Positions 5,598 to 21,961 of a stretch of 24,000 nt of DNA are shown here, in pieces. The notes under the pieces are model-generated. The model was not told the DNA's origin, did no database searches, and was given only the letters and a program-made list of their open reading frames with translations. Source of the stretch: an uncultured Methylococcaceae bacterium. Lineage in GTDB: Bacteria; Pseudomonadota; Gammaproteobacteria; Methylococcales; Methylococcaceae. The position numbers and the translations under genes are program-made. How positions within the stretch are numbered: position 1 is the first letter of the stretch; each line of letters opens with the position of its first letter. Where the stretch lies: assembly GCA_964582755.1 (NCBI GenBank), contig CAZOTR010000003.1, positions 1-24,000 of the forward strand, read 5' to 3'.

Positions 5598-5718
5598 TTC
5601 CCTGCCGCAATGCCGTCATTGCCGGCAAAAATCCTGCCGAAGCCAGACGCGCCCCCTGTCACTGCCGTGCAGTGACAGGGGGCGGCTGCGGCAACCTGCG
5701 CGGCTTCCGGGGCAAAAT

Positions 5719-5747
5719 TTGACATGACGGCCAGATGATGGCAGGAT
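5719..5747 (+). promoter_or_regulatory. Possible sigma70-type promoter upstream of orphan repeat copy A
   Basis: TTGACA (5719-5724), a 17-nt spacer ending in TGg, then CAGGAT (5742-5747; weak -10, 3/6 match). This would start transcription a few nt before the element at 5763. Sequence-only guess. Confidence 0.25.
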
Positions 5748-5762
5748 TTTGACCGCTCAACC

Positions 5763-5965
5763 GTGGCGGCTGCGTCCTCAGCCGCACCCTTTGCCGCCGT
5801 GTGCCTACACTTCCGGCGGCGGGCCTTCTGGCCCCGTAGGCGTTCCCCAGGCTCCGGCCTGTTCACTTCGGGATCGACGATCCCTCTGGTTCTATCCTAG
5901 CCAGCAGTCCCCTTTCCAAGGGAAGGTTTCCGGCACACCCACGTTGCGGTTTTCCCGCAACGCAC
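5763..5965 (+). repeat. Structured ICE leader element, copy A (orphan; 5' two-thirds conserved, 3' part diverged)
   Basis: gtggcggctgcgtcctcagccgcaccctttgccgccgtgtgcctacacttccggcggcgg ... cacttcgggatcgacgatccctct aligns with copies B, D, E and F. No T-tract, no conserved RBS and no adjacent gene. Confidence 0.75.
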
Positions 5966-6417
5966 CCATCCAGTTGGTTCCTGCCAACGTCCTTCCAGTG
6001 GCTGAAGCGGCGCGTCTTTGTTTGCCCGCGAAAGCGACTTCTCCCTCGCCCTGATGGCACGGCTTGCCGTGTCCTTAATGGCCGCTTCCAACTTGCCAGC
6101 GTGGTATCGCAATCCGCCACCAAGGCTCCCTCTAAATCGCTTGATACTGCGGCAACGCGGTTTTAGGCACCACGCACAGCCAGCCAAGCCGTCGGGCTTG
6201 CTGTGAGGAATAATACCTACGACGCTTCGACGATTGTTTGCAACAGCAGAACACGCCGAACCGCATATGCGGGCCTGTTTTATCGGATTGACAGCACGCC
6301 TTTTCCCTTCGGGGGTCTCGATTCCATCGAGTCGGCATTAACACTTACCCTGCGACAAATCCGCGAACAAATTACTGGATTATCCTGAATTATTATTCCT
6401 GATGTTTATGAGGCCGT

Positions 6418-7296
6418 ATGGACGATCTGCAATGGGAATTGAAAAAACTGACTAACCAACACCGTGAGGATTCCATCGGAACACAGGTGGCGCGTCACCA
6501 AGTGCTGGATCTGATGGCCCGCCAATTGAAGGAAATGGGCTATCGAAACATGAAGGCTATTTCCCTGAAGCCTAAGCATGTCGAAGCCTTGGTGAAGCGC
6601 TGGCAAGCAGAGGAATTATCCACAGGAACCTTGAAGAACCGCCTTTCACATTTGCGATGGTGGGCGGAAAAGATCGGCAGGCCATCCCTTATCCCCAATG
6701 ACAATGGGAAACTGGGCATTGAGAACCGGGTTTATGTGAAACCAGAGGGAAAACAAATCAGCCTAGACCCGGAGAAACTGGCGCAAATCAAAGATGCCCA
6801 TTTGCGCTTGAGTTTGGAGATGCAGGCACAGTTCGGATTGCGCCGTGAGGAGGCGATGAAATTCCAACCGGCGTATGCGGTTCGTGACAACCATATCCAT
6901 TTGAAGCCGTCTTGGACGAAAGGCGGAAGGCCACGCGATATACCTATTCGTAATGAAGCCCAGCGCGAATTGCTAGGGCGAGTCCGCCAGCTTGCGGAAA
7001 ATGGTTCGTTGATTCCGGCGGGGCGTTCTTATGTCTTCCAGAAGAACCTCTATGAGCGGGAAACCAAGAAAGCCGGTATCGCCGAAGGCGACCGGAAAGC
7101 CCACGGTCTGCGACACGGGTATGCCCAAGAACGGTATTTGGAATTGACCGGATGGAAATCGCCCCATGCCGGAGGCCCAAGGCGCGGGGAACTGACGCCC
7201 GAACAGCGGGAAGCCGACCTTGCCGCCAGGCTTATTATCAGCCAGGAAATGGGCCACAACCGCGAAGAAGTCACGGCGGTTTATCTGGGGCGCTAG
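6418..7296 (+). CDS. Tyrosine recombinase / phage-integrase-family protein (small ICE-associated type)
   Basis: 292 aa. Catalytic-type residues are in order: LRREEAMKF (Arg), HGLRHGYAQ (HxxR), GHNREEVTAVYLGR (His ... Tyr nucleophile). It resembles what I recall as the Phage_int_SAM_2 + Integrase_1 architecture. Confidence 0.75.
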   Translation: MDDLQWELKKLTNQHREDSIGTQVARHQVLDLMARQLKEMGYRNMKAISLKPKHVEALVKRWQAEELSTGTLKNRLSHLRWWAEKIGRPSLIPNDNGKLGIENRVYVKPEGKQISLDPEKLAQIKDAHLRLSLEMQAQFGLRREEAMKFQPAYAVRDNHIHLKPSWTKGGRPRDIPIRNEAQRELLGRVRQLAENGSLIPAGRSYVFQKNLYERETKKAGIAEGDRKAHGLRHGYAQERYLELTGWKSPHAGGPRRGELTPEQREADLAARLIISQEMGHNREEVTAVYLGR

Positions 7297-7432
7297 AAAT
7301 GCTTAACCAACAAAACTAATTCGATGGGTAGCGAAAACCCTTGCAAAAGGCTGACAAGGTTTTCGCTGGATAGCGTATCCCTGCGGCAGGATAATCCAGC
7401 CTGCCATTTGATTTGACCACAAGGCGAACGAC

Positions 7433-8776
7433 ATGCGTGTCCTGCTGGGTTCCAACGCTTACCTGAAGCGCACCGAGAACCGGGATGTCCCGGTCGTCTG
7501 GGACAGCCGCACGGCGATCAATCCGCACGTGTTGGTGATGGGCGCGTCCGGGGCTGGCAAGACCTGGAATCTGCGGCGGATGATCCAGGCTATGGCGAAA
7601 ACTGCCGATGGCCCGGTGCGCATCTATGTGTTGGATGTCCACGGCGACATTGATTTGGCCGGTGCGTCCACCGTGAAGTTTTCCGAAGCCACGGCCTATG
7701 GCCATAATCCATTGGCAGTCAGTCCAGACCGTGATGGCGGTGGCGTCCGCCGACAGATTCAGTCCTTCATTGCGGCGCTGAACCGGACTTCCCGGCAATT
7801 GGGAACTCGGCAAGAGGCGGTATTACGCGCGCTGCTGACCGACCTCTACGCCGCCAATGGATTCTACGAGGACAAGCCGGATAGCTGGCGGCTGGATGAC
7901 GGGATAGCGCGGAAATACCCGAAGAAATATCCGACTCTGCTGGATGCCGCCCGCTTCTCGGCGGCCAAGCTCAGGGCGCTATATCTTGGGGCCGACGCCA
8001 AAGCGGTGGCCGCATTGGAGCAAGTCAACGCGAAGGCGAGGTCGATATACGCCAGGAACAAGGCGATGGGGCAGATACGGCAGACCTTGGGGAACGCCCA
8101 GGCCGATAAGCCTCCCGCCGATCCCGAATTGGACAAACTGAAAGAAGCGGCGATAGCGGCCTATAGCGCTGCAATCCAAGGCATAGCCACCGGGCGCGAG
8201 TTGGACGACCTGATCCGCTACGACTCCAAGGACGTGCTGCGTAGTGTGGTGGAGCGATTGGAAAGCCTGAATGCCATCGGCATCTTCCGGCCGGACGAAC
8301 CGCCGTTCGACCCCAAGATCCCGGTGTGGCGTTATGACATCCGCTCCCTCGCCTCGGACGAGAAAAAGCTGTTCGTCTATTTCCGGCTCGAACAGATATT
8401 CCGGCAGGCTGCCCTGCGCGGGGTTCAGGGTCGGGTATCGGAAGTGGTCGTATTGGACGAGGCGCATTTGTTTTTCACCGACGAGGCGGAGAACCCGTTG
8501 AATGTCGTCGCCAAGGAAGCGAGGAAGTTTGGCTTGGGGCTGGTCTGCGCCAGCCAATCCCCCACGCATTTCAGCGAGGATTTCCTCGGCAACGTCGCCA
8601 CCAAGATGCTGCTGGGCATCGACGAGATGTATTGGGACGGCGCGGTGCGCAAGCTCAAGATCGACCCGAAGATCCTCCACTACGTCACCCCTAGGCGCAG
8701 CCTGGCCGTGCAGATCAAAACCGGAACAGAGAACCGGGCGCGGTTCGTCGGTGTCGATTTGTCCTCTGCGCGATGA
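7433..8776 (+). CDS. HerA/FtsK-like (DUF87-type) P-loop ATPase
   Basis: 447 aa. Walker A: VLVMGASGAGKTWN. Walker B: VVVLDEAHLFF. Followed by AKEARKFGLGLVCASQSP, typical of HerA/VirB4/FtsK-type ATPases. Confidence 0.7.
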   Translation: MRVLLGSNAYLKRTENRDVPVVWDSRTAINPHVLVMGASGAGKTWNLRRMIQAMAKTADGPVRIYVLDVHGDIDLAGASTVKFSEATAYGHNPLAVSPDRDGGGVRRQIQSFIAALNRTSRQLGTRQEAVLRALLTDLYAANGFYEDKPDSWRLDDGIARKYPKKYPTLLDAARFSAAKLRALYLGADAKAVAALEQVNAKARSIYARNKAMGQIRQTLGNAQADKPPADPELDKLKEAAIAAYSAAIQGIATGRELDDLIRYDSKDVLRSVVERLESLNAIGIFRPDEPPFDPKIPVWRYDIRSLASDEKKLFVYFRLEQIFRQAALRGVQGRVSEVVVLDEAHLFFTDEAENPLNVVAKEARKFGLGLVCASQSPTHFSEDFLGNVATKMLLGIDEMYWDGAVRKLKIDPKILHYVTPRRSLAVQIKTGTENRARFVGVDLSSAR

Positions 8777-8859
8777 AATTCAGAAAGAGGGCAGGGGAGG
8801 GAACACGTTTTGTCCCGAACCCATTGCACAATCATCAAACCTGACCGAAAGGTATTCAC

Positions 8860-9510
8860 ATGTTCAAACGATTTTCCTTACTGCAGCCATTGGCCCTGTT
8901 TGCCTTCTTGTCCGGCTTGGCATTTATTCCTGTCCAGGCTGGGGCGGATGAACTCATGCAAAGCAATCTGGGAACGTCGCCGGCATGGAAGTCATGGGAT
9001 CGGATGACCGTCACCGCGCCCCGATCACTGTCCAAGACCAAAACCCTCCAGCTTCCCGATTTCCTGCTGAAGATATGGGCGAATGAAATTGCCGCGAATG
9101 ACGATAAATACTTGAAGGACGGCAACGGACAACTCATTAAAAATGGACATGCGCCTGCCGAAGCGCTGTATTCGGTGTACCACGATGGCGATCTGACGGT
9201 AATCGTCAGCCTGTTGAACACCGCCAAGTATTGCCAGGACGGCCCAAATGATTCCGCCAGCACCCAGATTCACTCCACCTGCCCCGTCCGCGTGACCGTG
9301 ACGCGGGGCGGTGAGTCCAAGAGCCTTAATTATCCCGAGGCGTGTTTCCTGGATATTAGCTACGGCAATCCGCCCGGTGGCCCAGACCCTCTCACCAACG
9401 CATCGCTGACCCGGTATGACCGGCAGGCAGGCGTGGTCGAGCTGGTGGCGATCCGCGACAACCGGTCCCTGCCCGAGTGCGCAAAACAGTTGAAGGTTCC
9501 GCCCCTGTGA
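8860..9510 (+). CDS. Secreted protein of unknown function
   Basis: 216 aa. N-terminal signal peptide MFKRFSLLQPLALFAFLSGLAFIPVQA|GA. No family recognised. Confidence 0.6.
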   Translation: MFKRFSLLQPLALFAFLSGLAFIPVQAGADELMQSNLGTSPAWKSWDRMTVTAPRSLSKTKTLQLPDFLLKIWANEIAANDDKYLKDGNGQLIKNGHAPAEALYSVYHDGDLTVIVSLLNTAKYCQDGPNDSASTQIHSTCPVRVTVTRGGESKSLNYPEACFLDISYGNPPGGPDPLTNASLTRYDRQAGVVELVAIRDNRSLPECAKQLKVPPL

Positions 9511-10379
9511 TTGGACTGTTCCGTTCCCTACTGCTGATGCTGGCGCTGTTTTCAGCGGCACCGGCTTCGGCCCAACAGTTGGGGCCGAAAGTGGTAGTGA
9601 CTGCCGCACAGGTTGCCGCCGCCATCAGTAATTCCCCGTTGAGTCCCAGCCTCCAGGCTTATGCCGCCGATATTGGCAAGCTGGCGATCAACGTCGAATC
9701 GGGCGGCAATCTGGGTGTTTATAACGGAACCTGCTGCACAGGCGTGTTGCAGGTGAACAAAGGCGGCTTGGCGAAGTATTGCGATTGTACCTCGGAGGAA
9801 TACGCCAACATGTCCCTCCAACAGCAGGTCGATGTGTGGGCAAAACTCACTAACGCCAATGCCAATAACTCGACCGTTCAGGGTTTGATGGGAATGGGTA
9901 GTTTTGGCGAGAAGCCGGTGACCGGGGCGATGGTGCTGTCGTGCATCCAGATCGGGCCGGGTAATTGCGCCAAGACGATTAAGGCGGGGACTTGCGCGAC
10001 CAGCGCCGGATCGGACGGCAACGGCAACAACTTCTGCGACTTCGCGGCCAAGATCAATGGCGCGAGCGGTTCCAGTCCCGTGGCCATAACCGATATCAAC
10101 ACGCCGTCGGGCGCGGCCCCGCCTTTGCTGCCGAGCGCGAATTACCAGTATCCTTCCACCGAGGACGCTTTTCTTACCGGGGCTGGGGTGGATATGTCCC
10201 AGTCGAAAGACCTGGTGTTGTCGGCGTTGTCGGTGGCGATGTTCCTGTGGACTGCCTGGGTGGCGCTGGCCCAGTACGGCTCGTGGCGGCAAGGCCGCAT
10301 CGACTGGATGACCCTGCAAACCAATATCATCGGCTCGACCGTCTTGACGCTGTTGGTTCTCGGCCTGACGCTCGCCTGA
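9507..10379 (+). CDS. Exported, C-terminally membrane-anchored protein, possibly lysozyme/SLT-like
   Basis: Start moved to GTG 9507, which forms a GTGA overlap with the upstream stop. This gives the signal peptide VIGLFRSLLLMLALFSAAPASA|QQ. The segment INVESGGNLGVYNGTCCTGVLQV is reminiscent of the ES...G..Q lytic-transglycosylase motif (weak). It is Cys-rich and has two C-terminal hydrophobic helices. Confidence 0.5.
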   Translation: MIGLFRSLLLMLALFSAAPASAQQLGPKVVVTAAQVAAAISNSPLSPSLQAYAADIGKLAINVESGGNLGVYNGTCCTGVLQVNKGGLAKYCDCTSEEYANMSLQQQVDVWAKLTNANANNSTVQGLMGMGSFGEKPVTGAMVLSCIQIGPGNCAKTIKAGTCATSAGSDGNGNNFCDFAAKINGASGSSPVAITDINTPSGAAPPLLPSANYQYPSTEDAFLTGAGVDMSQSKDLVLSALSVAMFLWTAWVALAQYGSWRQGRIDWMTLQTNIIGSTVLTLLVLGLTLA

Positions 10380-10388
10380 TTTCCAAGC

Positions 10389-10598
10389 GTGGCGGCTGCG
10401 TTTTCAGCCGTACCCTTTGCCGCCGTGTGCCTACGCTTCCGGCGGCGGATTCCCCAGGGAATCCTGTAGGCGTCACAGGCCGCAAGGCCTTTCCACTTCG
10501 GGATCGCCGATCCCTTCTTTTCACCACACCCGACGGGGAAACACAGCCCCGCCGGGGGCTGCGTTTCCCCGTTTTTTCATTCAAAGCGGAGAAACACC
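10389..10598 (+). repeat. Structured ICE leader element, copy B (full, short form)
   Basis: Six successive hairpins, including gccgccg/cggcggc, ggattcc/ggaatcc, aggcc-gcaa-ggcct and gggatc/gatccc. The last is the nested terminal hairpin cggggaaac...gtttccccg + T6, then GGAGAAACACC-ATG of the DUF3577 gene. Confidence 0.85.
10534..10577 (+). terminator. Intrinsic-terminator-like hairpin + T6 inside copy B, 21 nt upstream of the ATG
   Basis: cggggaaac-acagccccgccgggggctgc-gtttccccg followed by tttttt. GC-rich 9-bp outer stem with an inner 7-bp stem. Confidence 0.5.
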
Positions 10599-11051
10599 AT
10601 GAGCGACAACACAAATACCCCATCCAATTATTTTGACTTGCATGTGACCGGCCTGGGCTATCTGAACCGTGTCCGGGAGGTCAAGGTTCCGCGCGGCAAG
10701 CCATTTTTGGCCGCGAGCATCGCGGCCCTGCACGGCGCGTCGGACTCGGTTGAAAAGACTTGGTTCGACGTGCGCGTCTCCGGGCAGGAGGCGCAGAAGG
10801 TGGTCCGGGATCTGATGCCCGACGCCGAAGCCGGCAAATCGGTTTTGGTCGGCTTCAAACTGGGCGACCTGACTGCGGAAACCTTTGTTTACGAGAAAGG
10901 CCCGAAGGCCGGACAAACCGGCGTCAGCCTGAAAGCCCGGCTGCTACGCATCGCCTGGGCCAAGGTTGACGGCAAGACGGTCTACACGGCCCCGAAAGAC
11001 GCCCAGCCCGCCGACGACAGGCAAGGCAGCGCCTTGCCCGAAGCGGCCTGA
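10599..11051 (+). CDS. DUF3577-family SSB-like ICE protein (STY4534-type)
   Basis: 150 aa. YFDLHVTGLGYLNRVREVKVPRGKPFLAASIAALHG ... VSLKARLLRIAWAKVDG matches my memory of the DUF3577/STY4534 family conserved in SPI-7/PAPI-1/ICEclc-type elements. Confidence 0.75.
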   Translation: MSDNTNTPSNYFDLHVTGLGYLNRVREVKVPRGKPFLAASIAALHGASDSVEKTWFDVRVSGQEAQKVVRDLMPDAEAGKSVLVGFKLGDLTAETFVYEKGPKAGQTGVSLKARLLRIAWAKVDGKTVYTAPKDAQPADDRQGSALPEAA

Positions 11052-11180
11052 CCGTTGGCTCCATCTGCCGCCCGCCAGAAACCGCAAGGTTTTCTGGTAG
11101 GCGGCTCCTATAGCCAATTCAATCGCCCAATTCTTCAATCCAAATTTTCAAGCAAGTGTTGTAAACTTTGATCTTCACTC

Positions 11181-11245
11181 GTGGCGACTGCGACTCAGCC
11201 GCACCCTTTGCCTAGGCTTTCCAGGCGTGTCTGCGCTTCCCTGGA
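11181..11245 (+). repeat. Structured ICE leader element, copy C (partial: first two hairpins only)
   Basis: gtggcgactgcgactcagccgcaccctttgcc is near-identical to copies E and F. The second hairpin keeps the loop cgtgtctgcgcttc, but its stem is replaced by ccagg/cctgg. Confidence 0.6.
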
Positions 11246-11474
11246 CGCGATAATCTATCTTCCGTCGATCAACGTAATCTTCGGATGGTCGCGAGCAGAC
11301 GTCCCAAACCGCCCATTGACATGACAGCGGTTCTAACCAGCGTCGGTATGTGAAAAGCCCGCCGCGTTTTCCAATTCGTCCGGGGATTTAAGCGTCCCCG
11401 GACACCCCACAACCCTGACAGGGCACTTGCCCGGTCATGGGAAGTGCCTTGCGTTTTCAGCAAGAGGCAACCCC

Positions 11475-12077
11475 ATGATCAACTTATCAGGAAATCTTTA
11501 CATACGTTCGGTCCACGGCCGCAACGGCGATTTCTCGGTCGGCCGGCTGGTCACCGACATTGGCGAGTTCGTCCTGCGCGACGAGTTCCTTAGGCAGTAC
11601 GGCGAGGGCCATTACCAAGGCGAGTTCGGCATTGCCGAAATCTTCCCGGCCAGCTATGTGGCTGGAGGCCGCATGGTGATCGAAATCCGCGCCACTTTGG
11701 CTTCATTGGCCTTGGCGGCGATTGACGACCTGCCCGGCGGGCAAGCGGAATCCGCAGTATCGGCGGAATCTGCTCTGATTGGCCCGGAAGCCGGGGAAGC
11801 TACGCCCCCATCCAAAGCGACATCCAGGCGCAACAAGCCGGGTGTGGCGAAACCTCCAAACGATGGACAGCCTGCCCAAAACGAGATATTTCCCCCCACG
11901 GGAGATGCCTGCGACGACGGGGCCGACGCTCATTTGTTCGGTGCCTTGTGGCCGCTGGGCGACACCGTGAGGCTGGACACATCGGTCAGCCGGGCCTTGT
12001 TCCGCCAGCAAAAAGAGCGGATGAAGGCGCTGGGGTACACGTTCCAAGCGTCCGGCCAACTGTGGGTTCGGACGTGA
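11475..12077 (+). CDS. DUF3275-family ICE protein
   Basis: Start chosen at ATG 11475 (MINLSGNLYIRSVHGRNGDFSVGRLVTDIGEFVLRDE...YVAGGRMVIEIRA). This N-terminal pattern is what I recall for DUF3275. The upstream part of the track ORF (from 11427) has no RBS support. Confidence 0.65.
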   Translation: MINLSGNLYIRSVHGRNGDFSVGRLVTDIGEFVLRDEFLRQYGEGHYQGEFGIAEIFPASYVAGGRMVIEIRATLASLALAAIDDLPGGQAESAVSAESALIGPEAGEATPPSKATSRRNKPGVAKPPNDGQPAQNEIFPPTGDACDDGADAHLFGALWPLGDTVRLDTSVSRALFRQQKERMKALGYTFQASGQLWVRT

Positions 12078-12127
12078 AATTCCTGGCGCAAGGCTTTGCC
12101 TTGCGCCCGGCAACCGGATTTCCAAGC

Positions 12128-12341
12128 GTGGCGGCTGCGTTTCCAGCCGCACCCTTTGCCGCCGTGTGCCTACGCTGCCGGCGGCGGATTCCCCAAGGAA
12201 TCCTGTAGGCGTCTTAAGGCCTCAAGGCCTTTTTCACTTAGGGATCGCCGATCCCGTCTTTTCACCACACCCAGCGGGAGAACGCATCCCCGCGCCGGGT
12301 CTGCGTTTCTCCGTTTTTTTCATTCCATTCGGAGAAACGCC
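12128..12341 (+). repeat. Structured ICE leader element, copy D (full, short form)
   Basis: Collinear with copy B, including the shared 5' flank gatttccaagc. Terminal hairpin + T7, then GGAGAAACGCC-ATG. Confidence 0.85.
12275..12320 (+). terminator. Intrinsic-terminator-like hairpin + T7 inside copy D, 21 nt upstream of the ATG
   Basis: cgggagaacgca...tgcgtttctccg followed by ttttttt. Confidence 0.5.
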
Positions 12342-13253
12342 ATGAGCAACAAGCACGAAATCACTTATACCCTCGGCTACCTGCACCGGGTCACGGTGGG
12401 GGTTGAAGCCGACAACGGGGAGGCGGCGCTGCGCATCGCCCAACAAGCTTTTGATAACGGTTTGATCTGGGACGACACCCCGGCCATGCCGCTGTTGTAC
12501 GACGATTTTGAGGAGAACGGCGACGGTTTGGACTGGGAAGTCCAGGCGGTCGAGGCGTTTAGCCAGCAAGATCCTTCCGTCAAGGTTCTACAGGCCCAGC
12601 GGAAGGCGTTGGAAGCCTGCCGGGCACTGGTTGCCGCCTATGCAGCCGGCGAAGAGGGCGACGGTTCCGTGTCTTGGGAAGACCTGGACTCCGTGCATGG
12701 GCTTGCCCGGCAAGCCCTGGCTTTGCTGGACGATTCCGCGATGGCATCCGCCCGCGCCACCGGCCCCAAAGCTAGGAAGTTGGCGGAAGCGGATTCGGCG
12801 CGCCCAAGCGATGCGTCTTCACTGCCCACGGTGGCCGATGTCCCACTGCGCCGCATCGTCGAGAGACTGGCGCAGTTGAAGATGTGGGATTTCGACGAAC
12901 GCGACGCCGATGACGACGGAAGCCTGGCCGCCAAGGAAATCGACGACGAAACGGATTGGCTGGACAGCCACATTTTGCTGATGACTTTCATCCGCGATGC
13001 CAGGAGGGCATTGCAGTCCGCCAAGCCTCCGCGTCTGGCCGTTGTGCTGGAGGTCGGAATCGTCCATGCGGTGGTGTCGGACAACGCCGTTGATCTGGCG
13101 GTGGCCGTCATCGACTACGACATCGAAGGTGCCGATGACGATGAATTGTCTTCGGTTCCGCAGGGCGACGGCACCTGCGTGGATGCCGTGGTGGGTTGCT
13201 GGAATGCGACCCCGGCGGCCATCGACCTTGACGCGGTGTTTGCCGCTTCATGA
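12342..13253 (+). CDS. Acidic hypothetical ICE protein
   Basis: Start chosen at ATG 12342 (MSNKHEITYTLGYLHRV...), directly after the conserved GGAGAAACGCC. The 82 codons upstream in the track ORF lie in repeat copy D. Asp/Glu clearly outnumber Lys/Arg by eye. No family recognised. Confidence 0.6.
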   Translation: MSNKHEITYTLGYLHRVTVGVEADNGEAALRIAQQAFDNGLIWDDTPAMPLLYDDFEENGDGLDWEVQAVEAFSQQDPSVKVLQAQRKALEACRALVAAYAAGEEGDGSVSWEDLDSVHGLARQALALLDDSAMASARATGPKARKLAEADSARPSDASSLPTVADVPLRRIVERLAQLKMWDFDERDADDDGSLAAKEIDDETDWLDSHILLMTFIRDARRALQSAKPPRLAVVLEVGIVHAVVSDNAVDLAVAVIDYDIEGADDDELSSVPQGDGTCVDAVVGCWNATPAAIDLDAVFAAS

Positions 13254-13296
13254 AGACCCAGCGTTTGACTGAAACCCATGCCCGGAGGAGGAAACC

Positions 13297-14382: not shown

Positions 14383-14429
14383 GGGCAGGTTCTGACTTGG
14401 CCTGAGAGTGTTGTTTTGTTGTTCGACCC

Positions 14430-14488
14430 ATCCGGGGAAATTCCCCGGACTGGGGGGTTCTCCGGACTTTAACCTGAGGAGAAACCCC
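14430..14488 (+). repeat. Structured ICE leader element, copy H (terminal-hairpin module only, no T-tract)
   Basis: ccggggaaattccccggactggggggttctccgg aligns with the terminal module of copy F (ccggggaaacctttccccggcgggacaggtttctccgg). It is followed by GAGGAGAAACCCC-ATG. Confidence 0.55.
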
Positions 14489-15565
14489 ATGCAGATAGAG
14501 ATAGTAAAACTTTTCCGGGTGGCGGATGTGTTCGGCCTTTACGCCGACGCCTTCGTCCAAGACCGGCAGTCCGGCCAGTTGATCTTCGCCTCCTTCTGGG
14601 GGCGTGACACGACTATCCAGGAACTGCTGGCGCGGCTTACTTTGTCGTCATCGGAAGGCGGTCTGGCCTCGCTGGACTTCAACCCGTGCGACAACCCGGA
14701 CAACGGGCTGAACGTGTCCATCGGCGATCCGAACCGGCTCGACAAGTTGACTGGCAGGATGCCCGCCGACAATTTGTTCGGCGCGGTGGCGCAGTTGTGG
14801 CTCTATGACCGCAAGGCCGTGGAACCCGATCATGCCAGCCGTCGGGCTTTGTTGCTGACCGGCGAAGACGTGTCCGACGGGCAATGCGGCAGCGCACCTG
14901 AGGACGAAAAGGTCTGGGCGCTGTTCAAGACGGTATCCCATCTGCCATTGCTCGACCACTGGCGGCAGGTATTGATTTCGGTCGCATTGTCCTGTGGCTG
15001 GCTGCGGATACACCCAGGCTTCCAGGTCAACGCGATTGAGTTGGATCTGGGCGTGGAGGACTACGAAGCCACGGTCAGCGAGTTGATCCGGCAAGGGCGC
15101 TTGACCCTCGAAGCGGGTGAGCCTCAAGCCGCACGGGAAGCCGATCCATTGCCCACGGTAATGTCGGCGTCAACCGATGAGAATCCGGTAACCACAGGGC
15201 GTTTGTCGGCGGAGCAGCTTGAGGATGGCTTGGCGCAATTCTACGGAACCCAACAATGGTTTCCGCATTGGCTCGTCAAGAACATGCTCTACACGGAAGG
15301 CGTCCAGTTTTTCGCCGAACAAGGCGGGGAGCAGGGGGCTTTCTGGTTTTTGGATATTGTGGCGACGGAATATTTTCAACTGCAACGGCAGGAGCCGTTC
15401 ATGCTGATCAAGCTGACCTCCAAGGACAAAAAAGCCACCGTCCAGGTGGAAAACGGCAATGGCCGGGTGTTGAAGGAAAAGAAGATCGAATACACGGATC
15501 TTCAGCCCGGCGTCTGGAAGTTTTACCTGACGGATGATGTTTTGCTGTTGCCCGGCGAGTATTGA
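14489..15565 (+). CDS. Hypothetical ICE protein with a DUF6876-like C-terminal domain
   Basis: Start chosen at ATG 14489 (MQIEIVKLF...) after the RBS GAGGAGA. The C-terminal ...YTEGVQFFAEQGGEQGAFWFLDIVATEYF...GVWKFYLTDDVLLLPGEY resembles the DUF6876 family as I recall it. Confidence 0.6.
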   Translation: MQIEIVKLFRVADVFGLYADAFVQDRQSGQLIFASFWGRDTTIQELLARLTLSSSEGGLASLDFNPCDNPDNGLNVSIGDPNRLDKLTGRMPADNLFGAVAQLWLYDRKAVEPDHASRRALLLTGEDVSDGQCGSAPEDEKVWALFKTVSHLPLLDHWRQVLISVALSCGWLRIHPGFQVNAIELDLGVEDYEATVSELIRQGRLTLEAGEPQAAREADPLPTVMSASTDENPVTTGRLSAEQLEDGLAQFYGTQQWFPHWLVKNMLYTEGVQFFAEQGGEQGAFWFLDIVATEYFQLQRQEPFMLIKLTSKDKKATVQVENGNGRVLKEKKIEYTDLQPGVWKFYLTDDVLLLPGEY

Positions 15566-15583
15566 TATTCGCCCCAGGCGGCA

Positions 15584-15855
15584 CCCCCCAGTGATTGGGG
15601 GGCTTCTTTAAGCCACCCCGACCGGGGCGGCTTAAAGAAGTCTCCGAGCAACAACGTGGCGACTGCGTTCTCAGCCGCACCCTTAGCCGTCGTGTGCCTA
15701 CACGTCCGACGGCGGATGCCGTTGGTGTCCCGTAGGCGTCACAGGCGATTAGCCTCTTCACTTCGGAACCGACGGTTCCATTTTTCCATAACCCGACGGG
15801 GAAGCCTTTCCCCTAAGGGGCAAGCTTCGCCGTTTTTTCCAATCGGAGAAGCGCC
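15584..15855 (+). repeat. Structured ICE leader element, copy E (full, long form)
   Basis: An extra 5' module: C6-agtgatt-G6 hairpin plus a 12-bp perfect stem cttctttaagcc/ggcttaaagaag. Then the common core from gtggcgactgcg (15656). Then the terminal hairpin + T6 and GGAGAAGCGCC-ATG. Confidence 0.85.
15794..15838 (+). terminator. Intrinsic-terminator-like hairpin + T6 inside copy E, 17 nt upstream of the ATG
   Basis: cgacggggaagc...gcttcgccg followed by tttttt. Confidence 0.5.
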
Positions 15856-16269
15856 ATGAACCAACATCAACATCAGCCGACATCCGGCCTGATTTACCCC
15901 TGTGACCGCTGCGGCCAGGCCAACCAGATCGTCAACCAATGCGGCTGCGATCCGGCCAACCTGCCCACTTTTGTCCAAGCGGACGACCGTTTAGTCGAGT
16001 CACTGCTCGTATTGACTGAGTTCGTCAACAACGTTAAGAACTCCAAAGCCCGGGTGGTTGCCAGCATTCTGGTCGCGCTCTGGAATGAAGACCGCGTAGT
16101 CCCCCATCTGCAATGGGTGGCGATGCTGGATCCTGTCACTTTCGAGCACGTCCTCAATGTGCTGCGGCTGGTGGCTACCGGGATACCCCTCGAAAGATTC
16201 TTGCAAGGAGGATCGGACGTTTTTGAGGGGATCATTCGGAGATATAACTTCAAGCAGAGCATCCCGTGA
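15856..16269 (+). CDS. Hypothetical ICE protein
   Basis: 137 aa. Conserved leader/RBS context directly upstream. N-terminal CDRCG...NQCGC Cys pairs. No family recognised. Confidence 0.55.
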   Translation: MNQHQHQPTSGLIYPCDRCGQANQIVNQCGCDPANLPTFVQADDRLVESLLVLTEFVNNVKNSKARVVASILVALWNEDRVVPHLQWVAMLDPVTFEHVLNVLRLVATGIPLERFLQGGSDVFEGIIRRYNFKQSIP

Positions 16270-16372
16270 ATGCGTAGGCCCAGCCTGCGCGTCATGGGAG
16301 AAATCCGGCCAGCCGGTTCGTGACTGGCGGGCTGCTTCGCTGACTTAAGGATTGGCCTCCAATTCTGATAAA

Positions 16373-16508
16373 CCGCCGCGTGCCTGCGTTGTCGGCGGCC
16401 ACCCGACAAGGGTGGGGCAGGCGTCTTTTTACTTACCTTTCGGGGAAACCTTCCCCGGCAGGGCGTGGTTTCTCCGCGAGGATCATTCCAATCCGACAGG
16501 AGAACACC
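16373..16508 (+). repeat. Structured ICE leader element, copy G (degenerate: hairpin 2 + terminal module, no T-tract)
   Basis: ccgccg-cgtgcctgcgttgt-cggcgg corresponds to hairpin 2. cggggaaaccttccccggcagggcgtggtttctccg corresponds to the terminal module. Then AGGAGAACACC-ATG. Confidence 0.55.
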
Positions 16509-17345
16509 ATGCGCCAGAACCAATTGGTTTCAAAATTTAGACACTTGAGCGGGTTCGCCAAGGCCAACGCGCCGTTGACCGACGATGAAATCCGCCGTGC
16601 GGCCCCCTCGATCTTTGCGGCCAATCCGCACGGGTCGCGCTCGGAGCGCTATACCCTGATCCCGACCATCGACGTGCTGACGGCACTGCGCAAAGAAGGG
16701 TTTCAGCCCTTCATGGTCGTGCAGGCCGGGGTGCGCAATGAAGACCGCTTGGACTTCACCAAGCACATGATCCGGCTGCGCCACGAAAGCCGGATCAATG
16801 GCGCGGAGGCCAACGAGGTGATCCTCGTCAACTCCCACGACGGGTCGAGTTCCTACCAGATGCTCGGCGGCGTTTACCGCTTCGTCTGCCACAACGGGCT
16901 GATCTGCGGCGACACGGTTGAAGACCTGCGGGTCAAGCACCGTGGCGACGTGGTGGGCCAGGTCATCGAGGGGGCTTACACCATCTTGAAGGACTTCGAC
17001 CGGGTGGACGCTTCCAAGGGCGAGATGAAAGCTTTGGAACTTGACGATGGCGAGCAAAGAGCCTTCGCCCGTGCCGCTTTGGCGATGCGCTACGAGGAAG
17101 GCAAGGAAGTGCCGGTCACCGAAGACCAGGTGTTGCGACTGCATCGACGTGAGGACGACGCCGACAACCTCTGGACCACGCTGAATGTAGTCCAGGAGAA
17201 TCTGGTGCGGGGCGGACTGCGAGGCCGCAATGCCAAGGGCCGCAGGGTCACAACCCGGCCTGTCCAAGGCATCGACCAGAACGTGCAATTGAACCGGGGC
17301 CTTTGGGTGCTGGCCGAGGAGATGCGCAAGCTCAAGGCGGCTTGA
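16509..17345 (+). CDS. DUF932 (DUF945)-family protein
   Basis: Start chosen at ATG 16509. PLTDDEIRRAAPSIFAANPHGSRSERYTLIPTIDVLTALRKEGFQPFMVVQ is the characteristic N-terminal pattern of DUF932 proteins common on ICEs and plasmids. Confidence 0.8.
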   Translation: MRQNQLVSKFRHLSGFAKANAPLTDDEIRRAAPSIFAANPHGSRSERYTLIPTIDVLTALRKEGFQPFMVVQAGVRNEDRLDFTKHMIRLRHESRINGAEANEVILVNSHDGSSSYQMLGGVYRFVCHNGLICGDTVEDLRVKHRGDVVGQVIEGAYTILKDFDRVDASKGEMKALELDDGEQRAFARAALAMRYEEGKEVPVTEDQVLRLHRREDDADNLWTTLNVVQENLVRGGLRGRNAKGRRVTTRPVQGIDQNVQLNRGLWVLAEEMRKLKAA

Positions 17346-17438
17346 TACCCGAAAGGGAATGGCTCACTAACCCGCGAGGGGCATCAGCCCTCGCGGCGCC
17401 TGGATGCCCCTCGTTTTCCAATCACGAGGAGCATCACC

Positions 17439-18545
17439 ATGGCGTTAATGTTTCAACGGCTGGCGAGAAATTTCGCCGCGAACGGGTATTACCCTACCGA
17501 CGAGTCCACCATCGAACGGATATTGTCGATGCTGCGGCCCAGCCCACAGGGGACGATGAAACTCATCGACCCCTGCGCGGGCGAAGGGGTGGCGCTGGCT
17601 GAATGCAAGCACCATCTGGGCGCGGATCGCGCTGAGGCCTTCGGCGTGGAATTACATAAAGAGCGGGCCTGGAATGCGAAGGAAATCCTGGATCGTGTCA
17701 TCCACGGCGATTTCCAGGAGACCACGATCAGCTACCGCCGGTTCGGGTTGCTCTGGTTCAACCCGCCTTACGGCGATCTGGTCAGCGACCAGGGTTCCAC
17801 AGGCGACGACGGCGGCTCGGGGCGGCAACGCTTCGAAAAACTGTTTTACCACCGCGCCTACCGGCTGTTGCAGCCGGGCGGCGTCATGGTCTTGATAGTG
17901 CCGCATTATTCCCTAGACAAGGAGTATGCGGGCTGGATCGCGGGCTATTTTGAACGGGTCGAGGCGTTTCTGTCGCCCGGACAGCGTTTCAAGCAGGCCG
18001 TGGTGGTCGGGGTCAGGGCGAATGCCTGGCAATCCGGCGACGCGGCCAAGCGGGTGCGGGAACGGCTGCAAAGCCTGTCCCGTGGCGAAGCCGATACCCT
18101 GCCTGAAACCTGGGACGGCGAGCCTTACGAAATCCCCGAGGACAAGGGGCAGGCGGTCGAATTCACCGCCAAGCGTCTGGATCATGCCCAGCTTGCGGAG
18201 GAAATCCGCCGCCATCCCTGCCTGTGGCCGCAATTTGAATTGCACTTGGGCCGGGTGGGCAAGACCCAGCGTCGGCCCTTGCGGGCGCTCTCCCGCTGGC
18301 ATCTGGCCTTGTCGCTTGCGGCAGGCCAAGTTTCCGGGGTCGTCCGTTCCAATGACGGCAGCCGGGTGTACGTGGTCAAAGGCGACACCTTCAAGGGCAA
18401 GACCGTGAAGACCACGTTCGAGGAGGCCGAATCCGGGCATTTCGTCGAGATACGCACGGCGACGGATGTGTTCAAGCCGGTGATCCGGGCCTTGGACTTC
18501 ACACCGGGCAGCGAAACCTTCGGGCAGGCTTTGGTCATCCGATGA
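17439..18545 (+). CDS. SAM-dependent N6-adenine DNA methyltransferase-like protein (orphan)
   Basis: 368 aa. Motif I: LIDPCAGEGVAL. Motif IV: LLWFNPPYG (NPPY). No restriction-endonuclease gene is recognisable next to it. Confidence 0.75.
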   Translation: MALMFQRLARNFAANGYYPTDESTIERILSMLRPSPQGTMKLIDPCAGEGVALAECKHHLGADRAEAFGVELHKERAWNAKEILDRVIHGDFQETTISYRRFGLLWFNPPYGDLVSDQGSTGDDGGSGRQRFEKLFYHRAYRLLQPGGVMVLIVPHYSLDKEYAGWIAGYFERVEAFLSPGQRFKQAVVVGVRANAWQSGDAAKRVRERLQSLSRGEADTLPETWDGEPYEIPEDKGQAVEFTAKRLDHAQLAEEIRRHPCLWPQFELHLGRVGKTQRRPLRALSRWHLALSLAAGQVSGVVRSNDGSRVYVVKGDTFKGKTVKTTFEEAESGHFVEIRTATDVFKPVIRALDFTPGSETFGQALVIR

Positions 18546-18705
18546 CAGGGGCAGGCCGGAGGGATTGCGGAAAAGTTTGAGTTTCAACCCTCGCTGGCAT
18601 CGCCAGTGATTTTAACCACCGCCTTGCGGAGACGAACATGCTCTCCGCAAGGGGTAGCCGTGTTTCGTTTCCCAGGGCTTTTTTTTATCCTTGAGGAGAA
18701 CTGAT

Positions 18706-20490
18706 ATGGCTACAGAAACCACGTTGAAAGTGAACCAGGAGCGGCTGGTCAAAAATCTGCGCTTCAGCTTTACCGACGCCACCACGGTGTTGGGCGAGCT
18801 AATGCAGAACGCCCGCCGGGCCGGTGCGACGAAGGTCGTGATCGACTTTAACCCTGAGTCCAAGACCCTGGTGGTTTGCGATGACGGCTGCGGGATTGAC
18901 TGTTTTCAGACGCTGCTGACCGTGGCGGAATCGGGTTGGGACGCCGAGCTGGTCGAGCGTGAACATCCGTTTGGCATCGGCTTTTTGTCGGCGCTGTTCG
19001 CTTGCGAACACCTGACGGTGGAAAGCCGGGGCCAGCGGATCGCCATGCCGACGGCGGACATCCTGTCCTTCCAGCCGGTGGCGGTCACGCCGGTCATCCG
19101 CTGCCCGGTGGAACCCCGCTTCGAGGGCGACGCCTGCGGCTGCGGGTCGGACAATCTGACCGGCCCGGACGACGAAGGCGTTTACGATTGTTACGACTGC
19201 GGCTTGTTTTTCACCGCCGAAGCCATCGGCCAAGGCGAACGCTGGAACGGCGTGACGACCGTCAAGCTGGACGGCTTCAAGCCCGAACCCGGCAAGGTGG
19301 CAGGCCGCTTGGCGGCTTTGGCCGAGGGTTTTCCCATTCCGGTGGTGTTCAACGGCGAGGCACTCAAGCGGCCTTGGGCGCTGGACTCGGGACGCGAGTT
19401 CATCCAAACCGGGGTTGGCCAGGTTTACCTGAAAGGGTTTGGCGCCGGCGAGGCGTGGACGGCATCGGTGGAGGATCTGCATATCTACTTGCAAGGCTTG
19501 CCGGTTTACCAAACGCCGCGCAGTTGGCACCGGGGGGACAACAGCAATGTGATCCACCTGGATTCCTCGCTGTTCCACGCGAGGCTTCCCGACCGTGACA
19601 AACTGGTCGATGAAGACAAGGTGGTCAAGCAGGTGGCTGATGCCGTCAGGCAGGAGGTCATTCTGAGAATCCAGGCGTTGGCGGACAGCCTTGAACCCGA
19701 GGCGTTTGCCAAAGGCTATGACACACTTAGGAAATGGGATTGCCTTGAGTTGTTGAACGACATTCCGGTCATTCCCCGGCAAGTGCTGTCCTTCATCCAG
19801 AGCTATCCCATCAAGGAAGGTGCTTATCCGGTGAATCTCGACCAGGCGGAAACCGTCACCCGCGAGGATGTGGAGACTGGCAAGGTCTCCATCGCCCAAT
19901 TGGAATGTTTCAGTGAGGAGAACGCGCCGCACTGGATGTACGCTTGGCACAAGGGGATGCTGGTATATGACCATCCTTTGCACAGCGGCCATTGGCTGCA
20001 CCAGCATATGGTCGAGATGGACGGGCAGCCCGTCCAGGTGGAGATCGTCGGCGAGACCCACCGGGCCAATTTCGAAGGCCAGTGGGTGTGCGGCGACGCG
20101 GTGTTTTGCGAGAAGTACCGCCTGACCTTCGATGGCGATACGGTCGATATCGAAGGCGATTCGATCTATCTGGAGGACGATGGGCTGTTCGTGGTGCCGA
20201 AGTGTGACGCCTCCGGCTCTGTGGTGAACCAAGCCTGTTCGTACTTTGACGAGAACGACAGCTACAACCAGTCGGTCAAGGACGAGGACGACTGGGCGTT
20301 TGAGAAGTTCGTCGTGGCCAACACCTCGGCGAATCCGGCGAAAGCCCTGGAACGCCTGCTGCCATCTTTTGCGGGCTGCCCCAAGGTATTCGGCAGGCGC
20401 TTCACGCTGGAACTGGATTCGTCCGGGAAAGTCGTGTCGGTGGAGGAATCGTTGGACGGCAAGCTTGCAGGGCAAGGGATGGAGGGATAA
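18706..20490 (+). CDS. GHKL-superfamily (MutL/MORC/Hsp90-like Bergerat fold) ATPase with a Cys-rich insert
   Basis: Start chosen at ATG 18706 after the RBS GAGGAGA. N box: LGELMQNARRAGA. G1 box: VCDDGCGID. G2-like: HPFGIGFLSALF. The insert ...DACGCGSDNL...VYDCYDCGLFF (CxC ... CxxC) is zinc-ribbon-like. The large C-terminal region is not recognised. Confidence 0.7.
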   Translation: MATETTLKVNQERLVKNLRFSFTDATTVLGELMQNARRAGATKVVIDFNPESKTLVVCDDGCGIDCFQTLLTVAESGWDAELVEREHPFGIGFLSALFACEHLTVESRGQRIAMPTADILSFQPVAVTPVIRCPVEPRFEGDACGCGSDNLTGPDDEGVYDCYDCGLFFTAEAIGQGERWNGVTTVKLDGFKPEPGKVAGRLAALAEGFPIPVVFNGEALKRPWALDSGREFIQTGVGQVYLKGFGAGEAWTASVEDLHIYLQGLPVYQTPRSWHRGDNSNVIHLDSSLFHARLPDRDKLVDEDKVVKQVADAVRQEVILRIQALADSLEPEAFAKGYDTLRKWDCLELLNDIPVIPRQVLSFIQSYPIKEGAYPVNLDQAETVTREDVETGKVSIAQLECFSEENAPHWMYAWHKGMLVYDHPLHSGHWLHQHMVEMDGQPVQVEIVGETHRANFEGQWVCGDAVFCEKYRLTFDGDTVDIEGDSIYLEDDGLFVVPKCDASGSVVNQACSYFDENDSYNQSVKDEDDWAFEKFVVANTSANPAKALERLLPSFAGCPKVFGRRFTLELDSSGKVVSVEESLDGKLAGQGMEG

Positions 20491-20493
20491 GCC

Positions 20494-21000
20494 ATGTACC
20501 TGCATGACTTTGACGTGGCGTTTTGTGTGAAGTCCAACGTGGCGGAATGGGAGGATCTGCCGCCCTCTGTCGTGCTGTCCGTCTTGAGAAGACGGGTGGC
20601 GGAATTGACCGAGGACGAGGTTCTCGATGCGGTTGGATTCCTAAACACAATCCCGCTGGATGCCCCTGAAACCGGGGACGGAATGCCGGATGCCCATCGG
20701 GGCGGGCCGGGTGACAATCCGCCCCAGCCCAGATACCTGGCGGGAACCCGGATCTTGTCGATCTTCGGCGAATCCGGCGATACCGACGAGGAAATCGACG
20801 CGCAGACCGGCCCCCATGCCGTGGGAACCATCAGCCAAGTCCTCCCGGAGCAGGAAAACTGCTACGTGGTAGAGTTCCTTGGCGGGATATTCGCCTTCCT
20901 CAGCGATGAGGAGCTTGCGGATAGCCATTACTACCAGGTTTTGGACGGTGCTTCCGACGCGGTTGCCGTCCCCGAAACCGAGGAAGGAGAAGCGCCATGA
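20494..21000 (+). CDS. Very acidic hypothetical protein
   Basis: 168 aa. Starts 4 nt after the GHKL stop. Asp/Glu-rich with few basic residues. No family recognised. Confidence 0.5.
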   Translation: MYLHDFDVAFCVKSNVAEWEDLPPSVVLSVLRRRVAELTEDEVLDAVGFLNTIPLDAPETGDGMPDAHRGGPGDNPPQPRYLAGTRILSIFGESGDTDEEIDAQTGPHAVGTISQVLPEQENCYVVEFLGGIFAFLSDEELADSHYYQVLDGASDAVAVPETEEGEAP

Positions 21001-21248
21001 TCCGCGACGTGTTTGTGGTGATCTACGAGCATCGGCACGGCATGGACGTGGCGGCCCATGCCTCACACGGGCAGGCCTACGCCGCCGTGGCTGAAATTGC
21101 GCGAACCTGGTGGCAGGAACGCGCCGACCGGGCGGCACCGGAGGATTGTGCCGCGCTGTCCGACGAGGAAGTGGTCAATGCTTATTTCGACGGGCACGAA
21201 AGCGAGTTCTACAGCATTGAGAACTCAAAAGTCGATTTTCCCGATTGA
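20997..21248 (+). CDS. Small hypothetical protein
   Basis: 83 aa. ATGA overlap with the upstream ORF, suggesting translational coupling. No family recognised. Confidence 0.45.
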   Translation: MIRDVFVVIYEHRHGMDVAAHASHGQAYAAVAEIARTWWQERADRAAPEDCAALSDEEVVNAYFDGHESEFYSIENSKVDFPD

Positions 21249-21284
21249 ACGAGGCATCCACCCTCATCCAAAACTAGCTTTACG

Positions 21285-21553
21285 CCCCCCTTGCGGGGGG
21301 CTTCTTTAAGCGCCCCGGCGCGGGGTGCTTAAAGAAGCCTCAGAAAAAAACCGTGGCGACTGCGTTCTCAGCCGCACCCTTTGCTGCCGTGTGCCTACAC
21401 TGCCGGCGGCGGATACCTTGGTATCCCGTAGGCGTCATAGGCTGGAAGCCTTTCCATTTCGGGATCGACGATCCCTCTTTTTACCACCCGACCGGGGAAA
21501 CCTTTCCCCGGCGGGACAGGTTTCTCCGGTTTTTTTTGCATTGGAGAAACACC
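21285..21553 (+). repeat. Structured ICE leader element, copy F (full, long form)
   Basis: C6-ttgc-G6 hairpin and cttctttaagc/gcttaaagaag stem. Common core from gtggcgactgcg (21353). Terminal hairpin + T8. GGAGAAACACC-ATG. Confidence 0.85.
21493..21538 (+). terminator. Intrinsic-terminator-like hairpin + T8 inside copy F, 15 nt upstream of the ATG
   Basis: ccggggaaacct...aggtttctccgg (one G-U pair) followed by tttttttt. Confidence 0.5.
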
Positions 21554-21961
21554 ATGAACCCGCAACACCTTCAACTTTACCGGGAACTGCGCCAACAAGG
21601 GCTTGCCTCGCGCTACGCGCTGGCTTGCTCACGGGCGCGGATGGCCCTCGAATCCAAATGCGCGGCGACAGGCTTTGAATGGCGGGAAGACCGCCATGGC
21701 CTGCTGTACGCCTGCTGGCAAGAGGAGGGCTTTGACTTGATGGCCGCCGTCGTCATCGACGAGGACGGCTGGTGCGTAAGCGGCGTGGATTTCATCGGCC
21801 GGTTTACCAGCCGCTGGGAATCCGGCGCGATCCGCCACCACCAAGGCGACCGGAATGCCCACAAGTGGTTTATTCCGGCGAACCTGGGCGACCCCAAGGA
21901 GGAATACCGCCGCGCCTGTGCCTTCGGGCGCGACTGGTGGGTGCGACGTGAAGTCGTGTAA
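21554..21961 (+). CDS. Hypothetical ICE ORF, apparently interrupted at 21940/21941 by a group II intron
   Basis: Start chosen at ATG 21554 after the conserved leader. The reading frame runs 7 codons into the inferred intron (…GRDWW|VRREVV*), so the annotated C-terminus is probably not native. The 3' exon would lie beyond the window. Confidence 0.5.
   Translation: MNPQHLQLYRELRQQGLASRYALACSRARMALESKCAATGFEWREDRHGLLYACWQEEGFDLMAAVVIDEDGWCVSGVDFIGRFTSRWESGAIRHHQGDRNAHKWFIPANLGDPKEEYRRACAFGRDWWVRREVV

Follow-up and report, generated by a model that had tools for sequence, protein, structure and literature searches.

Contig CAZOTR010000003.1 of an uncultured Methylococcaceae bacterium carries, upstream of the genes of an integrative and conjugative element (ICE), a family of repeated structured elements, which we analysed in a 24,000-nt forward-strand stretch of this contig (the window, to which all copy coordinates refer). 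The analysis establishes their fold, through covariation, the folding of the coding strand, a fixed place before start codons, and a terminator-like hairpin followed by a U-tract. With somewhat better than even confidence we read the elements, from sequence comparison, as cis-acting structured 5'-leader RNAs that form a divergent subtype of the radC motif (RF01754) and would control read-through into the genes that they precede. A cis-acting leader RNA had also been proposed in a first-pass annotation of the window, and covariation, position and the U-tract module make it the best reading of the elements.

The repeat family and its relatives

A direct-repeat scan recovered + strand copies at 5749, 10375, 12114, 15642 and 21339 with 64-95% identity over 100 nt; further direct-repeat families cover the 3' parts of the copies, and the five full copies are alignable over ~220 nt. 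We built a covariance model (R1) from the five full cores and searched with filters off: these cores score 124-148 bits, two further matches score 37 bits (16343-16459) and 24 bits (11179-11282), and the best match on the minus strand of the window reaches 14 bits, with none higher. A second covariance model (R2) spans the core hairpins H1, H2 and H3. In all, the window contains five full cores (A, B, D, E and F), two degenerate ones (C and G) and one copy of the expression module without a core; every one of them lies on the + strand and leads into a gene. The scan and R1 thus agree with the first-pass annotation that the repeat family is real and has a single orientation. The extent given there needs trimming: the ~220-nt alignable family stands, and the 5' ~70 nt assigned to copies E (15584-15653) and F (21285-21350) do not belong to the core.

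The search of related ICEs with a covariance model, which the first-pass annotation had suggested, found relatives with both R1 and R2. We fetched 80 loci around DUF3577 homologues, one genome per species, and the two models together return 28 strong cores, namely those of the window and 23 in 7 of the 80 loci, in an orientation that matches DUF3577. All strong matches (E < 1e-5) lie in gene orientation, with a single orientation per contig; three weak opposite-strand matches from this search (E 0.005-0.009) were treated as noise. Metagenome contigs were scanned with a pattern constraining only H1 and its flanks, with R2 applied afterwards, and this gave 59 full cores (49 distinct) from 56 contigs, at a GC content from 43% to 73% and again in one orientation per contig. 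With 23 further cores in genomes and 59 in metagenomes, a single recent duplication confined to one genome, which the first-pass annotation had named as the case that would overturn its reading, does not apply. The hosts of window-type copies are Methylococcales-like and other environmental Gammaproteobacteria; copy B has no match among the PLSDB plasmids.

Fold and covariation

From its 5' end, the conserved core consists of CCGUGG, H1, a C-rich ACCCUU linker, H2, and H3 with a pseudoknot in which the H2 loop pairs with six bases directly 3' of H3. In copy B (core 10387-10475, + strand; R2 95 bits) pair counts place H1 at 10392-10398/10405-10411, H2 at 10419-10425/10440-10446 and H3 at 10447-10453/10458-10464, and the pseudoknot between a 5' arm GCCTAC within the H2 loop (10429-10434) and a 3' arm GTAGGC immediately 3' of H3 (10466-10471). 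Across copies the H2-loop arm reads GCCUAC, GCCUGC, GUCUGC, AUCUGC or GCCCAC, and its partner changes with it to GUAGGC, GCAGGC, GCAGAC, GCAGAU or GUGGGC.

In the alignment of the 28 cores from the window and the genome loci, 96.0% of helix cells form standard pairs; sliding the 3' partners by 1-3 columns reduces pairing to 27-53%. Changes on both sides are seen in 23/27 pairs, and all four helices show compensatory changes. The 49 distinct metagenome cores behave in the same way (96.5% of cells paired; pseudoknot 98.2%, with 4/6 pairs covarying), so that over the two alignments the pseudoknot helix is 98-99% paired, with 3-4 of its six pairs covarying. Unpaired nucleotides are kept as well, as CCGUG, CUGCG and ACCCUU. 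The folding z-score of leader B is -6.6, and H1 of copies E and F contains an A-C mismatch. The compensatory changes that the first-pass annotation had listed for hairpins 2, 3 and 5 are present. Its fold holds as regards covarying hairpins, but its hairpins 4 and 5 are confined to the ICE lineage of the window, being absent from relatives in loci L003, L005 and L033, and it had missed the covarying pseudoknot.

We inspected an alternative pairing of GGCGGC, 5' of H1, with GCCGCC of the 5' arm of H2, and rejected it, as the changes in copies E and F do not compensate. Open reading frames (ORFs) cross some copies (e.g. 12096-13253); inter-copy indels, together with the conservation of ribosome-binding site and ATG, speak against translation of the elements, in keeping with their earlier description as non-coding.

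The folding strand

Within the helices, in coding-strand coordinates, G-U combinations outnumber A-C ones by 38:10 in the window and genome loci, by 72:15 in the metagenome set (24 versus 8 distinct site-types) and by 30:3 in radC copies, of which 11/16 retain one particular G-U pair. As G-U pairs would be C-A mismatches on the opposite strand, this bias argues that the folding strand is the coding strand, and the sense-strand-specific fold claimed from a few such pairs in the window is upheld on all three sets.

Leader parts outside the core

Copies B, D, E and F end, as first described, at the ATGs of non-homologous genes (10599, 12342, 15856 and 21554). Between core and gene, 19/22 window-type leaders have a hairpin of -19 to -34 kcal/mol followed immediately by T4-T9, 14-25 nt upstream of the ATG; under a stricter test (at least T5, hairpin of -12 kcal/mol or better) the combination is found in 39/69 distinct copies versus 17/600 control positions. 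An AACCC box stands upstream of the long GC-rich hairpin. In leader B the GC-rich, intrinsic-terminator-like hairpin (10534-10571; free energy -33.9 kcal/mol) and its T6 (10572-10577) together occupy 10534-10577, 21 nt before the ATG, and the equivalents on the + strand are 12277-12320 in leader D (T7 at 12314-12320), 15797-15838 in leader E (T6 at 15833-15838) and 21492-21537 in leader F (T8 at 21530-21537).

The translation-initiation region that follows is conserved too. In the leader of copy B it reads GGAGAAACACCATG (10588-10601, + strand), and the same string precedes the starts at 10599, 12342, 14489, 15856, 16509, 20997 and 21554 (sites 10588-10601, 12331-12344, 14478-14491, 15845-15858, 16499-16511, 20986-20999 and 21543-21556). 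It is near-invariant as GGAGAA(A/G)C(A/G)CC-ATG ahead of these seven non-homologous genes, and it recurs in distant ICEs.

Relationship to the radC motif

The repeats match no Rfam family at the gathering threshold in the window, nor at E up to 10 in 5500-22000; weak matches of miRNA type at 21299 and 21491 are plain hairpins and were discarded. The Rfam comparison that the first-pass annotation had called for thus gave no match in the window, yet it led to radC (RF01754), which that annotation had not named, as the closest family. Its mention of a "DUF3577 RNA motif" found no confirmation: no Rfam family of that name occurs in the window or in 15 DUF3577 loci, and the name is absent from the main text of Weinberg 2017.

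We scanned these 15 of the 80 DUF3577 loci with Rfam (RF01754 gathering threshold 40 bits) and found RF01754 in 2-4 copies per ICE, in the same orientation. One copy lies just upstream of DUF3577, at a distance of 100-270 nt, in L014, L042, L046, L062, L065, L079 and L080. From the radC 3' end to the DUF3577 start the distance is 100-120 nt in six of these loci (~80 nt in L046), and from the copy B core, which occupies this slot in the window, it is 123 nt. RF01754 is absent from L003 and L033, two loci which hold window-type copies.

A comparison of the two types showed that: 1) radC has the same order of a hairpin, a C-rich (CCC) linker, a second hairpin and an adjoining third one, with helices that covary in both types. 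2) In radC as in the window type, the H2 loop forms a covarying pseudoknot with the bases 3' of H3 (AU 11 / GC 4 and UA 12 / CG 3 at two of its pairs); it is not marked on the RF01754 consensus structure line given by cmscan, which, rather than the 2010 drawing, is the object of this comparison. 3) The leaders of both have the same AACCC box, GGGG...CCCC...CUCC hairpin and GGAGA...ATG module. 4) Window-type copies precede RadC-JAB, ArdC, DUF932, DUF3275, DUF3577 and integrase-like genes, classes that match those of radC, which in Proteobacteria occupies the presumed 5' untranslated region of DNA-related genes (radC, integrase, methyltransferase, anti-restriction). 5) radC displays the same G-U strand bias. 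The differences are equally clear. The pseudoknot arms are GCCUGC/GCAGGC in the window type versus GAUC/GAUC in radC, and linker and loop sequences differ as well; the 3' domain of radC (model positions ~100-149) is missing from the window type, which has the unrelated H4 and H5 in its place; the radC-type leaders of Pseudomonas and Betaproteobacteria are mostly without a U-tract, whereas the window subtype has one; and the hosts are environmental Gammaproteobacteria for the window type versus Pseudomonas and Betaproteobacteria for radC. RF01754 misses all window copies (E up to 10), and R2 misses the radC copies. Because the models do not cross-detect and the radC 3' domain is absent, we regard the elements as a new variant of radC rather than as members of RF01754; positional and architectural equivalence makes a divergent and so far unrecognised radC subtype their best reading. 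The radC motif itself appears in Weinberg et al. 2010 (PMC2864571) as an RNA that is likely to be cis-regulatory and whose function is unknown, with a "?" for switch. The PesA small RNA of PAPI-1 and the TprA paper offered no link to radC-type leaders.

In Pseudomonas ICEs (L014 8640-8670 and 9716-9750; L046 5611-5645; L080 8652-8685) a conserved TTGACA stands ~24 nt before the RF01754 model start, with a 17-nt spacing to a weak -10. From this position, the start of the RF01754 model probably represents promoter DNA and not RNA.

A third variant occurs at L004 (2401-2508, 5818-5927), L007 (3069-3214), L008 (9774-9892, 12768-12899) and L009 (14333-14452, 17740-17859). It has the same H1 and ACCCUU, an additional hairpin, and a GGACCG/CGGUCC pseudoknot around a GAUCG hairpin, and it is preceded by clear terminators plus TTTTA.

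Another RNA of the same ICE type, STAXI (RF01728; Weinberg et al. 2010), is likewise pseudoknotted and lies near ssb, topoisomerase, anti-restriction and integrase genes. It consists of 2-3 tandem pseudoknot units and belongs to Enterobacteriales, whereas the window type has one pseudoknot domain plus H1; RF01728 has no match in the window at the gathering threshold, nor in 5500-22000 at E up to 10.

Proposed mechanism and alternative explanations

On the leader-RNA reading, the leader would be transcribed, with most of the internal copies, which have no promoter, being reached by read-through. The pseudoknotted domain would be recognised by a factor, be it a protein (of the ICE or of the host), RNA polymerase itself or a small ligand, and this recognition would set read-through of the leader terminator into the gene, with a possible further effect on mRNA stability or translation. 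It is thus probably the read-through of its own leader terminator that the domain would govern. With one and the same domain in front of many genes, a single signal would jointly switch on DNA-processing and anti-restriction genes. Several observations weigh against this proposal or the evidence for it. Minimum free energies of the sense and antisense strands, with RNA as well as DNA parameters, show no strand difference; the G-U bias is as compatible with coding-strand single-stranded DNA (ssDNA) as with RNA; and the alignments were fitted by a covariance model with a slight preference for G-U over A-C. Between core and terminator, no conserved antiterminator pairing was found. In D, F and L003:10001 the 3' arm of the terminator is complementary to the ribosome-binding site over 9-12 nt; taken over all leaders this complementarity fails to reach significance, and we retain it as no more than a hint. 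Most internal copies are without a recognisable promoter, and since radC-type leaders mostly have no U-tract, terminator control is not universal to the superfamily.

A stronger form of the proposal, possible but to be held with clear reserve, makes the pseudoknotted domain an antitermination signal (put-like or riboswitch-like) that would work by itself or with the help of a factor and would let RNA polymerase pass terminators in the ICE establishment cluster. Structured leader RNAs before intrinsic terminators in long co-directional mobile-element operons are known as HK022 put, Bacillus EAR and pLS20 conAn, the last being a case of leader-RNA antitermination of the establishment genes of a conjugative plasmid (PMC6294495). 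The leader layout of the window would be compatible with processive antitermination like that of put and EAR; however, put, EAR and conAn occur once or twice per operon and not before each gene, and they have no sequence or Rfam similarity to the window elements.

An explanation that we consider improbable places the structure in the transferred ssDNA, as a promoter of the Frpo kind or as a priming or loading signal (ssi), perhaps for the Toprim primase of the ICE (13297-14382). It would account for the many copies in uniform orientation and for the lack of a double-stranded-DNA promoter at most internal ones, and the genes behind the elements (anti-restriction ArdC, RadC, DUF932, methyltransferase, primase, DUF3577) belong to the leading-region type, which in plasmids is driven by ssDNA promoters (PMC11541004); in its favour, too, ssDNA and RNA motifs are indistinguishable by comparative analysis alone (Weinberg et al.; PMC5737381, PMC2864571). 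Frpo and ssi of F-like and IncI plasmids also lie upstream of establishment genes as a folded single strand, several per element and in one orientation. Yet Frpo, as defined in PMC11541004, consists of a single long, imperfect hairpin, which restores -35 and -10 on the template strand, whereas the window elements are made of short helices of 6-7 bp and a pseudoknot and contain no hexamers. No -35/-10 hexamer pair lies in or beside them on either strand, and a promoter scan of 5500-22000 gave two sites only, neither inside a repeat. As the folding coding strand (see the three G-U ratios above) cannot be the template for these genes, the Frpo-like promoter, which the first-pass annotation had put forward as an alternative, is disfavoured; the elements also have features that belong to the RNA level, namely the U-tract, a conserved ribosome-binding site and a constant spacing to the ATG. 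The elements may yet be a priming signal on the coding strand. A riboswitch, with the pseudoknot domain as the sensor of a small molecule and the leader terminator under its control, strikes us as decidedly unlikely. H-type pseudoknots with an embedded hairpin, such as this one, are used by several riboswitch classes, e.g. preQ1-II, and the conserved unpaired CCGUG, CUGCG and ACCCUU, with a terminator-like hairpin and U-tract downstream, would suit such a function, as would the "?" for switch in the radC entry (PMC2864571). Against this, the leaders revealed no alternative antiterminator pairing, radC-type relatives are without the U-tract, DNA-processing and anti-restriction genes suggest no obvious metabolite, and the junction sequence varies more between radC and window type than is typical of aptamers. 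We find it still harder to credit a trans-acting short RNA of ~190 nt, ending at the leader terminator and serving as decoy, sponge or regulator: the strong terminator directly after the structured domain, the several near-identical copies per ICE and the stabilising effect that the structure would have on an RNA fit it, but nearly every copy comes coupled to a ribosome-binding site and start codon, the relatives without a U-tract would yield no such RNA, and no target complementarity is known. A functionless recent duplication or selfish repeat, finally, deserves almost no credence. In its favour are the 95% identity of copies B and D and the common flanks of E and F; it is refuted by dozens of diverged elements ranging from 43% to 73% GC, with compensatory changes in four helices and always in gene orientation before start codons.

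The individual copies and their flanks

All features in this section lie on the + strand. Copy A (core of H1, linker and H2/pseudoknot/H3 at 5761-5845; R2 84 bits) had been called an orphan, a label that does not hold: an integrase-like gene lies downstream at 6418, as it does behind A-type copies in L100, L104, L110 and L120, and an upstream TTGACA box is kept as well. This box is part of a sigma-70-like promoter (5719-5747; TTGACA, 17 nt, CAGGAT; 9/12 matches) that ends 13 nt before the core, and box (GTGACA in L104) and spacing are conserved upstream of A-type copies in L100, L104, L119 and L120. Sigma-70-like promoters with at least 9/12 matches precede 5/38 copies versus 0.9% of background windows, those bearing them being copy A and DUF3577-proximal copies in other ICEs. 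The ~570 nt of untranslated region between copy A and the integrase-like gene recur in L100 and L120, the gap being far shorter in L104 and L110. Positions 5846-6417 are conserved between the diverged ICEs of L100 and L120 and contain more hairpins, e.g. GTTGCGG-TTTT-CCGCAAC at ~5943-5960; this looks like a long structured 5' untranslated region.

Copy B is the leader of DUF3577/STY4534 (10599-11051; Pfam, NCBIfam), copy D (core 12126-12214; R2 94.5 bits) that of a 303-aa acidic protein (12342-13253), copy E (core 15654-15741; R2 81 bits) that of a DUF7673 gene (15856-16269), and copy F (core 21351-21437; R2 88 bits) that of an ORF starting at 21554 and running into a group II intron. Three partial copies had also been reported. 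Two of them are indeed degenerate cores. Copy C (11179-11282; R1 24 bits, R2 35 bits), upstream of DUF3275, has H1 and an H2-like stem and, on inspection, lacks H3 and the pseudoknot 3' arm; copy G (16343-16426; R2 49 bits), the leader of DUF932 (16509-17345), has a degenerate H1, an intact H2/pseudoknot/H3 and no T-run. The third (14419-14488), the leader of a DUF6876 gene, comprises only the 3' hairpin and ribosome-binding module, i.e. an expression module without a core, with a GGGGAAA...CCCC...TTCTCCGG hairpin and GGAGAAACCCC-ATG.

Upstream of copy E, and outside the core, two hairpins (CCCCCC/GGGGGG, then CTTCTTTAAG/CTTAAAGAAG; 15584-15653) form a terminator-like end of the upstream gene, and two homologous hairpins (21285-21350; direct-repeat family D2) precede copy F. 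The same layout recurs at L089:5840-5909 and L005:18253-18322 and in L102, L129 and L090: first comes a short GC hairpin and then a long one, T-rich in its 5' arm (GCTTTTTCCAAG) and A-rich in its 3' arm (CTTGGAAAAAGC), which ends 10-15 nt before CCGTGG. Such an arrangement may represent a terminator with a U-tract that becomes sequestered at a later stage. A strict terminator directly upstream of the core was found in 0/69 copies by a first criterion and in 6/72 by a looser one, and we therefore dropped the idea that a terminator precedes every copy. A sigma-54 reading of TGGC...TGC in H1 was rejected on inspection, the spacing being wrong.

The ICE and its genes

The co-directional genes of the window encode an integrase-like protein, a HerA/FtsK-type ATPase, a TIGR03758/DUF3262 ICE protein, the STY4534 ICE replication protein, DUF3275, the Toprim primase, DUF6876, DUF7673, DUF932, a DUF6094 methyltransferase and a GHKL ATPase. 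They are the DNA-processing and establishment genes of an ICE, which we infer from its gene families (DUF3577/STY4534, TIGR03758) to be of the MPF_G type, i.e. the ICEclc / PAPI-1 / SPI-7 type; oriT and relaxase lie outside the window. These genes follow a type II cyclic oligonucleotide-based anti-phage signalling (CBASS) operon (805-5182; patatin phospholipase, DncV-like nucleotidyltransferase, E1/E2 fusion and JAB), cargo that is situated directly upstream of copy A and its promoter. The 303-aa protein behind copy D is Asp/Glu-rich by eye and has no Pfam match; it may be a candidate DNA-mimic anti-restriction protein. The ORF behind copy F stops at 21961, and domains D1-D4 of a group II intron (RF02012, 118 bits) follow at 21995-22145, so this gene seems to be interrupted. 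Metagenome contigs L100/L101 (Ga0265316_10000368) and L106 (Ga0265327_10002564) hold an ICE that is a close relative of the one in the window, with the same complement of copies, similar model scores and copies that differ at few positions.

Significance

The radC and STAXI motifs are already known as the commonest non-coding elements of MPF_G ICEs, in which they make up 80% of the RNAs (Cury et al. 2017, PMC5587801). ICEs of this type spread resistance, virulence and catabolic genes, and the function of both motifs has been unknown since 2010. The subtype described here extends radC to environmental Gammaproteobacteria, whose ICE annotation misses it because the Rfam model is blind to it, and it adds a covarying pseudoknot and a strand assignment; the strand analysis also argues that the elements are no ICE counterpart of the ssDNA promoters of plasmids. 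A hairpin and U-tract just before the start codon turn the label "cis-regulatory?" into a testable hypothesis of read-through at a leader terminator. If the antitermination form of this hypothesis were true, it would provide the first mechanism for the radC motif since its description in 2010, and radC-type RNAs would act as the master switch that turns on the programme of anti-restriction and DNA processing in a widespread family of ICEs.

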